Shown here piece after piece: positions 28,660 through 34,056 of a stretch of DNA of 64,000 nucleotides. The stretch comes from Candidatus Acetothermia bacterium (GTDB lineage: Bacteria > Bipolaricaulota > Bipolaricaulia > RBG-16-55-9 > JANLFV01): NCBI GenBank assembly GCA_024653345.1, contig JANLFV010000002.1, positions 4,830 to 68,829 on the forward strand. Direction: 5' to 3'. Below the pieces are notes generated by a model, which worked only from the letters and a program-made list of their open reading frames with translations, made no database searches and was not told the DNA's origin. The stretch's first letter is position 1. The number at the start of each line of letters is the position of its first letter. A program made the position numbers and the translations under genes.

Positions 28660-29889
28660 TCAAGGCTCCGCGAAGACCTTCAGCACATCCAGCTCCCTCA
28701 CCTCGAGGGAGAGCCCGAGGAGGGCGGCAAGGCTCGGAGTGGTCCGCCCGCTGTCGCCGGAGAGGAGTTCCTTCACATAGAGTCCGCCATCGCAGCGGAC
28801 CTCGATGAGCGCCTCCCGTTCGCTCAAGAGCTCCCCGCGGGCTTCCCAGACCCTCCTGCTCCTCACGAGGTCGGCCCGCCGATGGGCGACCCGCCGAGGG
28901 GTCCGCTGGGCGATCGGCCCGACCAGGTCACGCAGGGCAGCTTCGAGTTCTTCAGCGCTCACCGGGCGGTCGAACTCCACCCTGGCCCGATAGAACTTCT
29001 CGGCCCTCCCGCTCTTCAGCCGCTCAATCGCTCCCCGTGTCACGAACCTCAGGTCACCGACTTCCACCTTGCTGGCGGCTCGCTCGTTGATCTGGTCCGT
29101 CAAAGCCTGGAGATCGAGGCTGCGAAGCCGCGGCTCGCGGACCTCGATGATGAACGGCCGGCCTTCGCCGAGCATCCGAGCGTCAATGTCCTCTCGCCCT
29201 GAGCCGTGGAAGGCCGAGCTGCTCCCCCGCGCGGCCTCCAGAACCGGCGGGCTGATCAGCTCCTCGACGCTCTCGGGATACTGCTTCCCCGTGAAGTCGC
29301 ACTTCTCGCAGCCTCGCCCGCGGCAGGCTCGGCAGGGCCAGTGGGTCTGAGGGATGCCCCGCACGAGCTTCTTGTAGCGGCCGTAGATGAAGAGGGGCGC
29401 GATCTTGAGCTCCACCCGGTCCCATACAAGATCGAGGAGGAGGGCTACCTCGGGGTTGTGGAGGTCGACCGCCGCGCCGCGGGCTTGCAAGGCCGCCTCG
29501 AGCCGCTTCCCCACCTCGCGGTTGAGGTCGTGCTTCAAGAGCTCTGCTCCTTCAAGCCCGTGTCTTCGCTGGAGCTCGGCCTCTTGCTCCTCGAGGAACT
29601 CCGGCCAGTGGCTGCCTACGACGAAGCTCCTGAACTCGAGCCCCTCGAGCTGCGCGAGGGCGCGGCTAGACCACTGGTCAACCTTCAGGAGGTGGCCGAG
29701 GCAGAGCTGGCAATAGCGCGGCTCCTCATAGGGCCGATCGTCCTCCATGGCGAGCATGATGCGGATAGCCCGGCCCCGGTCGCGGTTGCTCAGGCCATGG
29801 CTCCGTCGCCCGAATTGCCGCCCCAGACAGGAGTCGCACAGCTCGCGCTCGGCGAGGATCTCCCTGGCTAGGTCGAGGATCTTCGACAT
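28660..29889 (-). CDS. tRNA pseudouridine(54/55) synthase Pus10 homolog
   Basis: 409 aa with N-terminal CxxC pairs (CDSCLGRQFG, CQLCLGHL). The catalytic motif GREDIDARMLGEGRPF, the motif RTPRRVAHRRADLVRSRRV and GGLYVKELLSGDSGRTTPS match Pus10 signatures as I recall them. Confidence 0.65.
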   Translation of the reverse strand: MSKILDLAREILAERELCDSCLGRQFGRRSHGLSNRDRGRAIRIMLAMEDDRPYEEPRYCQLCLGHLLKVDQWSSRALAQLEGLEFRSFVVGSHWPEFLEEQEAELQRRHGLEGAELLKHDLNREVGKRLEAALQARGAAVDLHNPEVALLLDLVWDRVELKIAPLFIYGRYKKLVRGIPQTHWPCRACRGRGCEKCDFTGKQYPESVEELISPPVLEAARGSSSAFHGSGREDIDARMLGEGRPFIIEVREPRLRSLDLQALTDQINERAASKVEVGDLRFVTRGAIERLKSGRAEKFYRARVEFDRPVSAEELEAALRDLVGPIAQRTPRRVAHRRADLVRSRRVWEARGELLSEREALIEVRCDGGLYVKELLSGDSGRTTPSLAALLGLSLEVRELDVLKVFAEP

Positions 29890-33328: not shown

Positions 33329-33357
33329 TTGATCTCGAGCCAGTCTTGTGCTATACT
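33329..33357 (+). promoter_or_regulatory. promoter (TTGATC-N17-TATACT with TGn-extended -10) for the intron-containing tRNA
   Basis: TTGATC at 33329-33334, a 17-nt spacer, then TGTGCTATACT ending at 33357. The tRNA 5' end lies 12 nt downstream. Confidence 0.45.
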
Positions 33358-33403
33358 GACGCCGATCTTCCCGGGTAGCTCAACCGGCAGAGCGGGTGGC
33401 TGT

Positions 33404-33949
33404 AGGGAGGCATGGAGCAGGTGGCTGACAGGCGAGCATACGCTGATCGGCGCGGATACTTGATCGAGGCCGTGCGGAGCCGCCGGAAGAGGATTCGCAG
33501 GATGGCTCTGCAGTATGAGGGTGCTAGATGTAGCATCTGCGGCTACGATCGGTGCGAAGGAGCGCTGGAGTTTCACCAACTAGAGGCCACAAGTAAGGAC
33601 TTTGGGATCTCCGACAAGGGGTATACCCGGAGTTGGAGAAAGGTCCGAGAGGAGCTAGATAGGTGCATACTCCTATGTGCCAATTGCCATCGCGAAGTCC
33701 ATGCCGGAATGCAGCTTCCACGGGAAACCGTGGTCGAAGAATCGGGTGAATTCAGGGGAGCCTACCCCGAAAGGAAGGGTAACCCTGAGCGAAGCCTGCC
33801 GAAGGGACTTGGAGTAGGCAGGAACGTGCAGAGACTAGAGGCTGAGGATCCCACCAATAATGCCTCGCGAGCGCCCGACACCCTCTCCCTGGTCCTCCAG
33901 GGCGGGTGAAGAGATAGTCCGAGCCCAGCAGAAATGCTGGGGGAACTCG
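33404..33949 (+). mobile_element. group I intron (about 546 nt) carrying an HNH homing endonuclease ORF
   Basis: R-like element GCAGAGACTAGA at 33828-33839 and S-like element AGATAGTCC at 33912-33920 form P7 (GACTA/TAGTC). A P8 hairpin CCCTGGtcctCCAGGG lies at 33887-33902. A P9 hairpin CCCAGCAgaaaTGCTGGG lies at 33924-33941. The terminal G is at 33949, and the 5' exon ends in U. Confidence 0.65.
33412..33909 (+). CDS. HNH homing endonuclease (intron-encoded)
   Basis: 165 aa with CSICGYD...EFHQLE...LLCANCHREVH, the HNH motif. The start follows a GGGAGG ribosome-binding site 8 nt after the 5' splice site. The 3' third of the ORF overlaps the ribozyme core. Confidence 0.8.
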   Translation: MEQVADRRAYADRRGYLIEAVRSRRKRIRRMALQYEGARCSICGYDRCEGALEFHQLEATSKDFGISDKGYTRSWRKVREELDRCILLCANCHREVHAGMQLPRETVVEESGEFRGAYPERKGNPERSLPKGLGVGRNVQRLEAEDPTNNASRAPDTLSLVLQGG

Positions 33950-34056
33950 TAACCACTAGGTTGCAGGTTCGAGTCCTGCCCCGGGAGCCAGGTCAGTATT
34001 GGTTCAACCCTTTGTTGTGTCGGGAGTATTCCCCTCTCGAACATCTTTGGCCCACT

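Follow-up and report, generated by a model that had tools for sequence, protein, structure and literature searches.

A group I intron with an HNH-type endonuclease open reading frame (ORF) splits the anticodon loop of the mutL-adjacent tRNA-Asn(GUU) gene in a Candidatus Acetothermia bacterium (Bipolaricaulota). The gene lies in a stretch of 64,000 nucleotides (nt; contig JANLFV010000002.1 of assembly GCA_024653345.1), which was analysed as a whole and is called the window here. We consider it very probable that the insertion, between tRNA positions 35 and 36, is a self-splicing intron, apparently of subgroup IA, with an HNH homing-endonuclease gene. The tRNA-Asn gene would be transcribed from its own promoter. 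P1 would form between the last six nucleotides of the 5' exon, GGCUGU, and a guide, GCAGCU, that lies some 300 nt further downstream, and would place a U.G wobble at the splice site. The core formed by P3-P8, with its P3/P7 pseudoknot, would bind free guanosine for attack after U35; the terminal G of the intron (33949), positioned by P9.0, would then enter the guanosine site and the exons would be joined to give a normal 76-nt tRNA-Asn. Active copies of the endonuclease would nick or cut tRNA-Asn genes that have no intron, close to the sequence of the anticodon loop, with repair copying the intron in. The intron in the window is possibly a vertically inherited passenger by now, with an endonuclease that may be dead.

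We called tRNA genes with ARAGORN in its default and introns-allowed (-i) modes, and also ran it on an in-silico spliced construct. With introns allowed, the window yields a 76-nt tRNA-Asn(gtt) with a 546-nt intron at 35/36, and the spliced construct returns the identical 76-nt call, a cloverleaf with anticodon GUU. An original prediction, made from the sequence alone, had assembled a complete tRNA from two pieces about 546 nt apart with the insertion in the anticodon loop, and both points stand. It had also noted a final U in the upstream exon and a final G in the intron: U35 (33403) is indeed the last nucleotide of the 5' exon and the U-1 of the intron, and the intron ends with G33949. The identity elements for asparaginyl-tRNA synthetase are the anticodon and the discriminator base G73, and direct reading of the window tRNA finds G34, U35, U36 and G73 in place. 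Upstream lies a match to the promoter consensus (TTGATC-17-TATACT, 33329-33357), the probable counterpart of the promoter that had been predicted for the gene: one such site is observed where 0.1 would be expected, and an intronless orthologue (L097) has a similar TTGATC-17-TATATT at the equivalent upstream place.

Close relatives of the host settle where the exons end. The MutL encoded beside the tRNA gene is 100% identical to a protein listed by NCBI for a metagenome-assembled genome of Candidatus Acetothermia (Bipolaricaulota). Orthologous loci, found via the neighbouring MutL (86% identical to that of the window in L096/L097, 77% in L098 and 75% in L100), all contain an uninterrupted tRNA-Asn(GTT) gene divergent from mutL, at a spacing of 99-112 nt versus 97 nt in the window. 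L096/L097 has the same gene order as the window (aminotransferase, aldehyde dehydrogenase, rubrerythrin, tRNA, mutL, DUF4015, Pus10), and its tRNA-Asn is identical at 76/76 positions to the window exons joined at the predicted junction. This fixes both the exon boundaries and the tRNA-Asn GUU identity, which had originally been given as probable. The tRNA-Asn genes of L098 and L100 differ from the joined exons at two D-loop positions. We found no traces of the ORF or of the ribozyme at the tRNA-Asn loci of L096/L097, L098 and L100: the intron is present in the window lineage and absent from close relatives at the orthologous locus.

The same arrangement recurs widely. Scanning one genome for each GTDB species brought up at least 548 relatives of the ORF; the counts given below come from the best 80 of these. 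An intron-split tRNA surrounds the ORF in 78 of the 80 loci, the other two being cut by contig ends; with the same architecture in 78 of 80 independent loci, the arrangement in the window is not a product of chance. The copies come from Nitrospirota, Acidobacteriota, Elusimicrobiota, Omnitrophota, 'Deltaproteobacteria', Bipolaricaulota, Aerophobetes, Clostridia, Planctomycetia, Bacteroidota, Binatia and Aminicenantes, so that the best 80 span about a dozen phyla outside Patescibacteria. ARAGORN -i takes 66 of the 78 split tRNAs for Asn and the other 12 for Thr, Tyr or Phe, an ambiguity in tRNA identity that Nakagawa et al. (mSystems 2026, PMC13011429) also describe. These labels could suggest that the window gene has other exon boundaries or another identity, for example that of a tRNA-Thr with the intron at 33/34; this alternative, or that of an assembly artefact, has a probability close to negligible. 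All 12 loci share the junction GGCTGT/...G/TAACC (slashes mark the splice sites), which makes the labels boundary mis-calls, and any other boundary in the window would leave the intron with a final base that is not G. Once joined, the exons match the uninterrupted orthologue at every base, and an artefact would have to be repeated in 78 independent assemblies. All 80 loci retrieved with the ORF are tRNA-Asn introns at the same site, 78 of them complete.

The intron contains the core of a group I ribozyme with a conserved and covarying fold. The Rfam check that had been proposed for the region gave a match to RF00028 (Intron_gpI) at 33657-33941, over the full model (1-253), with 72.9 bits (E = 1.4e-16) against a gathering score of 50. 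We aligned 46 intron cores from the ORF-retrieved loci, each from the internal guide to the 3' exon, and scored a hand-drawn model made up of P2, P3, P4, P5/P5a, P6/P6a, the P7 pseudoknot, a P7.1-type hairpin, P8, P9.0 and P9 (Table 1). In this P2-P9 model 95.2% of cells are paired; sliding the partners by 1-3 columns lowers this to 32-45%. Compensatory changes occur in 37 of the 57 pairs, and the observed values are not attained in any of 500 shuffles. P4 and P7 are invariant, as is usual for these parts of a catalytic core, and are for that reason uninformative on covariation; the Rfam consensus for P7 is AGACUA/AUAGUC. The P7, P8 and GAAA-capped P9 elements that had been predicted are all recovered, P7 as an invariant helix and P8 and P9 as covarying ones. 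P9.0 covaries as well and ends directly before the terminal G, and this fixes the 3' splice site. The internal guide is found as TGCAGC(T/C) at the matching position in 71 of 77 introns by pattern search. A P7.1-type extra hairpin is a hallmark of subgroup IA; the one in the window is only 76% paired across the alignment because some relatives have two hairpins there. Assignment to subgroup IA (IA1) is suggested by the hairpin in this position, and carried over from introns 83-86% identical to that of the window that are listed in Table S5 of PMC13011429. RNAalifold, run on the core alignment, recovered P2, P3, P6, P6a, P8 and P9 and mis-paired part of P4. It also paired three invariant guide bases with G/UA at the 3' splice site, a pairing that we did not adopt.

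An intron with this core might nonetheless have ceased to splice, leaving a dead tRNA pseudogene. Splicing of the window copy is something we infer from its sequence, and both the 300-nt insertion in the P1 loop and translation overlapping the core could hinder folding. We judge this outcome highly improbable: all core helices are intact and fit the family consensus; U-1, the terminal G, the guide and P9.0 are present; the exons are identical to those of a functional-looking orthologue and the promoter-like site has been kept; and default ARAGORN detects no further tRNA-Asn in the 64-kb window. Were this the sole tRNA-Asn gene of the host, splicing would be essential, as the original prediction remarked.

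The endonuclease ORF begins, as had been predicted, 8 nt into the intron, with an ATG at intron position 9. Its protein-coding part sits in the P1 loop, in an insertion that is the only large gap when the intron is aligned with an ORF-less 258-nt intron from Bipolaricaulota (gap at 33406-33705) or an ORF-less 283-nt intron from Nitrospirota (33418-33693). The ORF has 165 codons, of which only the first ~98 evolve as protein: across 77 introns the entropies at the three codon positions are 0.73/0.46/1.49 for codons 1-98 (p = 1e-25) and 0.80/0.84/0.82 for codons 99-165 (p = 0.48). This tail results from the frame reading through into the ribozyme core; it overlies the internal guide and P2-P8, and the stop codon (TGA, 33907-09) falls inside P8. 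As the ORF runs through the guide and these helices, translation and ribozyme folding would be mutually exclusive on any one RNA molecule.

We consider it very unlikely that the whole ORF encodes a two-domain protein in which the C-terminal 67 residues are functional, for example as a DNA-binding or maturase domain. Tail amino acids are conserved in many homologues (LQLPRETVVEKSGEFREA...NGNPERS...RNVQRLEAE), as this reading would have it, but they are conserved because the underlying RNA is. The tail has none of the third-position periodicity of the HNH part, and lies exactly over P1-3', P2, P3, P4, P6, P7 and P8, which covary as RNA. Moreover, stop positions vary widely among homologues (lengths of 113-201 amino acids), and the AlphaFold2 (AF2) model gives the tail a predicted local distance difference test score (pLDDT) of ~50 and no secondary structure.

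The coding part appears to specify a divergent zinc-finger endonuclease of the HNH family. Homologues of the whole ORF form more than 3,000 clusters at 90% identity, and the HNH part alone matches 19,825 clusters at 50% identity with E <= 0.001. The Pfam HNH family (PF01844) is matched at E <= 0.01 by 14 of 20 family members, the best at 1.1e-4, and the family profile matches the HNH domain of a group II intron maturase (6me0, E = 0.0024) and McrA. Zinc-ligand motifs are conserved as CxxC (C40, C43) and CxxCH (C89, C92). The AF2 model is confident over residues 11-100, where a long helix is followed by a strand-strand-helix unit with CxxC...CxxCHxxxH, and its high-pLDDT elements are strand 52-56, strand 85-89 and helix 90-97. 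The Foldseek neighbours of this model in the PDB are almost all HNH nucleases, which gives qualitative support only, the best E being 0.1. The originally proposed HNH endonuclease therefore stands at the level of the family; the window copy itself falls below the Pfam cut-off, carries Gln in place of the second His of HH and is protein-like over only ~98 codons. Among the top-scoring matches to the HNH part (P0121-P0268), many are proteins of 200-400 amino acids with two matched stretches, apparently tandem duplications of the HNH module.

The Gln in question, encoded by codon 56 (H56Q), stands at the end of the first strand, where the family has HH (103 of 106 scorable relatives) and the window copy HQ. 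By analogy with the D-H pair in Cas9 and H102-H103 in colicin E9, we take the second residue of HH to be the general base. The window copy lacks this presumed catalytic His, and its endonuclease may for that reason be weakened or dead. Other members of the family have damaged genes with an intact ribozyme: the ORF is truncated or frameshifted in 5 of 77 loci (L013, L029, L058, L070 and L076), which may mark successive steps in the loss of the endonuclease gene or else be errors of assembly.

It is about an even question whether the window endonuclease is already inactive and its intron an immobile, vertically inherited passenger, early in a cycle of gain, decay and loss; this would refine rather than replace the reading of a self-splicing intron with a homing-endonuclease gene. 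The near-invariance of the replaced His speaks for it, as do what would be later stages of decay in the family, namely the five damaged ORFs, a published 347-nt Nitrospirota intron with an ORF remnant, and the ORF-less 258-nt and 283-nt introns. On the other hand, the window ORF is otherwise intact and of full length, with all zinc-ligand cysteines and the CxNCHxxxH block present; H56Q amounts to a single base (CAA vs CAC/CAT) in one assembly, which a sequencing error could have produced; and the catalytic role of the second His is argued by analogy.

Several observations weigh against a self-splicing and mobile intron in the window. P1 shows no covariation, since tRNA-Asn identity fixes its exon strand; in L047 and L062 the exon reads GACUGU and the guide is still GCAGC, so that one P1 pair is lost, a change that is uninformative for covariation. 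For P10, the bases 5' of the guide and the 3' exon sequence UAACC have nothing conserved across the alignment and no convincing pairing. Splicing of the window copy is argued from sequence features. As regards the protein, the window ORF scores 13.7 bits against Pfam PF01844, below the cut-off of 21.4, and Pfam and NCBIfam scans of this ORF alone return nothing above threshold; where the classical H-N-H motif has its central Asn, the family has Lys or Arg, and Foldseek finds no significant match in the PDB. ATG 33412 comes only 1 nt after GGAGG, and translation may instead begin at GTG 33421, which has GGAGG 10 nt before it and lines up with the 'VAERR' at which relatives start. H56Q, by the analogy above, argues against current endonuclease activity, and any cleavage site is putative for every member of the family. 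Finally, the presence/absence pattern among the Acetothermia relatives could reflect precise loss instead of gain.

Homing is suggested indirectly by the empty orthologous site, by the exclusive association of the family with tRNA-Asn, and by an intron similarity that does not follow host phylum: the core of the window intron resembles Nitrospirota introns (80-87%) about as closely as it does introns of its own phylum (81-84%), which fits horizontal spread without proving it. A tblastn comparison of the flanks of the window with the 80 genome loci gave no matches that would indicate synteny.

Elements of this kind are already known, as the window ORF is 60% identical to a published one. The original prediction called bacterial tRNA group I introns rare, named Leu, fMet, Ile and Arg tRNAs as carriers of mostly ORF-less ones, and took an HNH-bearing intron in a tRNA of Asn type to be apparently undescribed; the literature has overtaken this claim of novelty. 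Williams 2020 (bioRxiv 10.1101/2020.01.27.920355) raises the number of intron-split bacterial tRNA types from 4 to 21; its text does not name Asn, and PMC13011429 states that 'Asn.4Ug' appears in that work. Nakagawa et al. (PMC13011429) report group I introns at 35/36 in tRNA-Asn(GUU), count 28 introns at 35/36 among 4,934 complete genomes, of which 19 are from Patescibacteria, 3 from Nitrospirota and 1 from Bipolaricaulota, and assign those at 35/36 to subgroup IA, where 81% of bacterial tRNA introns belong to subgroup IC. They demonstrated GTP-dependent self-splicing in vitro of a Patescibacteria tRNA-Asn 35/36 intron, sequenced the ligated tRNA, and found that a mutation of the terminal G to C abolished splicing. 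Four of their tRNA-Asn introns bear HNH genes, all in Patescibacteria; IA introns at 35/36 that encode a homing endonuclease gene (HEG) were seen only there, and the authors noted that draft genomes might reveal more. We located one of these, in GCA_016699425.1 (Paceibacteria), by a search for NCH-encoding DNA, and it is its HNH protein that is 60% identical to the window ORF (E = 1e-35); its ORF is placed as in the window, closely following the 5' splice site and preceding the internal guide. The published Patescibacteria introns share with the window the tRNA-Asn, the 35/36 site, a ribozyme apparently of IA type, and the HNH family, and differ from it in that the window host belongs to Bipolaricaulota (Acetothermia) and its ORF has H56Q.

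ORF-less relatives of the intron are known at the same site of tRNA-Asn(GUU): over exons and ribozyme, those of Bipolaricaulota GCA_004102645.1 (258 nt) and Nitrospirota GCA_951812745.1 (283 nt) are 83% and 86% identical to the window, respectively. Both have the same helices, are classed as IA1 in Table S5 of PMC13011429, and lack the ~300-nt L1 insertion. Other tRNA introns are more distant. The cyanobacterial tRNA-fMet intron with I-Ssp6803I (Bonocora and Shub 2001, as cited in PMC3984707) differs in tRNA, in site (33/34) and in having an endonuclease of the unrelated PD-(D/E)XK fold; PF11645 cases of such endonucleases in tRNA introns are given in PMC13011429. The introns of cyanobacterial tRNA-Leu(UAA), Azoarcus tRNA-Ile(CAU) and Agrobacterium tRNA-Arg(CCU) occupy sites 34/35 or 36/37, have no ORF and measure ~200-250 nt. 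The I-HmuI-type nicking endonucleases of Bacillus phages, which the original prediction suggested for comparison, are likewise HNH enzymes encoded in group I introns; the solved proteins nearest in sequence to the window HNH are the maturase HNH domain and McrA, not I-HmuI.

By itself, then, the window element changes little, being a textbook-type mobile intron of a published kind. What is new here is its occurrence in another phylum, the at least 548 HNH-bearing copies, the orthologous presence and absence in Acetothermia, and the phage homologues beside tRNA-Asn described below. The wider distribution is an extension that the authors of PMC13011429 anticipated, their survey having covered complete genomes only. 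There is a practical consequence in that standard tRNA finders miss or mislabel such genes: default ARAGORN, run on the 64-kb window, reported a tRNA-Thr alone, missed the split tRNA-Asn and found no other, and default settings likewise fail to find the related split genes. Genomes in which tRNA-Asn is missed or mislabelled appear to be without it, which biases completeness scores that count tRNAs, and many metagenome-assembled genomes will appear to lack tRNA-Asn.

Relatives of the HNH part also occur in phages, as free-standing genes. A tblastn search found them in 451 phage records, at up to 61% identity, and in 13 of 14 sampled phage loci the HNH gene lies within a cluster of tRNA genes. 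It immediately adjoins tRNA-Asn(GTT) in 7 of the 14 (Bastille, Goe5, LAh_6, Lak-A1, Vibrio F86, S-WAM2 and VH1_2019). With 9 Asn among the 128 tRNAs of these loci, the probability of this by chance is ~0.001, or 0.005 with Bastille and Goe5 counted once. An Rfam search of the Bastille and LAh_6 loci detected no group I intron, unlike the setting of the window HNH. Behind the HNH gene of both Bastille and Goe5 comes a truncated 3' half of tRNA-Asn that starts at the anticodon arm GGCTGTTAACC. All seven intact phage tRNA-Asn genes adjoining the HNH gene differ from GGCTGTTAACC at positions 30-31/39-40, their arms being GATTGTTAATC, GACTGTTAATC, AGCTGTTAACT and GCCTGTTAAGC (L082-L095), while the GGCTGT/TAACC of GGCTGTTAACC is found in 76 of 78 intron-bearing bacterial tRNA-Asn genes. 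In this small sample, the recognition site may lie around GGCTGTTAACC, with the resident phage copies immune; the conservation of the bacterial anticodon arm could equally be explained by the intron's own requirement for P1. The locus of Acinetobacter phage Aci05 (L086, ~1980-2060 and 2403-2474) has a tRNA-Asn-like anticodon arm, CAGACTGTTAATCTGAGG, ~240 nt downstream of the HNH homologue. It is not an ARAGORN call. Separately, the Aci05 record annotates a 'tRNA-Val-GTT', GTT being an Asn anticodon.

A single HNH lineage specialised on the DNA of the tRNA-Asn anticodon arm, free-standing in phage tRNA clusters and a P1-loop passenger in bacterial introns, and spread with the intron over at least a dozen phyla, might account for these patterns; we advance this tentatively, as an idea somewhat likelier to fail than to hold. 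SegB offers a likeness, as an endonuclease encoded among tRNA genes that targets tRNA genes, the niche in which the phage homologues are found, often by tRNA-Asn; it differs in belonging to another nuclease family and in recognising the T arm. Models of how mobile introns arise by 'collaborative homing' and by endonuclease-gene invasion have been set out (PMC3984707), and the literature searched contained no paper linking this phage HNH family to the tRNA-Asn intron. The phage homologues beside tRNA-Asn offer a testable route by which the intron could have acquired its endonuclease. If the idea is right, this would be an unusually large natural case of a free-standing endonuclease and an ORF-less intron with one target merging into a mobile intron, and it would overturn the published view of HEG-bearing tRNA introns as rare and confined to Patescibacteria.

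Table 1 Features of the split tRNA-Asn gene and its intron, in window coordinates, and phage loci with an HNH homologue by tRNA-Asn, in coordinates of each locus
Feature	Position	Strand	Basis and remarks
Promoter-like TTGATC - 17 nt - TATACT, 11 nt before tRNA 5' end	33329..33357	+	Consensus match; putative function
5' exon of tRNA-Asn(GUU)	33369..33403	+	ARAGORN -i; acceptor 5' strand, D arm, anticodon-stem 5' strand, loop nt 32-35 (CUGU)
P1 5' strand GGCUGU	33398..33403	+	Direct reading; pairs with internal guide, U.G wobble at splice site
Group I intron, 546 nt, between tRNA positions 35 and 36	33404..33949	+	ARAGORN, Rfam, covariation, orthologue
L1 (P1 loop) insertion, ~300 nt	33406..33705	+	Absent from ORF-less introns; holds endonuclease protein-coding part
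ORF, 165 codons + stop	33412..33909	+	Codons 1-98 (33412-33705) HNH-type endonuclease
Codon 56, CAA (Gln), at second His of HH motif	33577..33579	+	Alignment; EFHQ vs EFHH in relatives
Internal guide sequence GCAGCU (P1 3' strand)	33711..33716	+	Alignment and ORF-less intron comparison
P2 hairpin CCACGG-GAAA-CCGUGG	33718..33733	+	6/6 pairs compensatory; 100% paired
P3	33742..33748 / 33872..33878	+	4/7 pairs compensatory; 100% paired
P4 (33752-57 / 33783-88)	33752..33788	+	Nearly invariant; 98.9% paired; encloses P5
P5 and P5a, within P4	33761-63 / 33777-79 and 33767-68 / 33773-74	+	Compensatory changes; third P5 pair weak
P6 (33789-91 / 33825-27)	33789..33827	+	One pair G-C to C-G in 13 sequences
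P6a	33795-800 / 33817-22	+	6/6 pairs compensatory
P7 GACUA / UAGUC, pseudoknot with P3	33833..33837 / 33915..33919	+	Invariant; 100% paired in 45 distinct sequences
P7.1-type hairpin between P7 and P3' (GAGGC 33838-42 / GCCUC 33862-66)	33838..33866	+	5/5 pairs compensatory; 76% paired
P8 hairpin (CACCC 33879-83 / GGGUG 33904-08)	33879..33908	+	4/5 pairs compensatory; ORF stop overlaps 3' strand
P9.0 (GAG 33921-23 / CUC 33946-48)	33921..33948	+	3/3 pairs compensatory; encloses P9
P9 (CCCAGC / GCUGGG), GAAA-type loop	33924-29 / 33936-41	+	4/6 pairs compensatory
Intron-terminal G (omega-G)	33949	+	Invariant alignment column
3' exon	33950..33990	+	U36, A37, A38, anticodon-stem 3' strand, variable loop, T arm, acceptor 3' strand, G73, encoded CCA
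Phage locus L082, Bacillus phage Bastille NC_018856.1	2131-2802		
Phage locus L083, Aeromonas phage LAh_6	2350-2752		
Phage locus L084, Goe5			
Phage loci L085, L087, L093, L095			

Two further observations concern the neighbourhood of the tRNA-Asn gene. In L098, a gene of the phage integrase family (1537-2115) lies ~700 nt from the intronless mutL-adjacent tRNA-Asn (2815-2890), and the usual neighbours of this tRNA gene, rubrerythrin and aldehyde dehydrogenase, are replaced, so an element may have integrated there. Pus10 is usually described from archaea and eukaryotes. A gene on the minus strand of the window (~28660-29889) encodes a product that matches the domains of the archaeal-type Pus10 tRNA pseudouridine synthase (PF22023, PF21238), and it is kept in the close relative L096/L097 (6513-7742).

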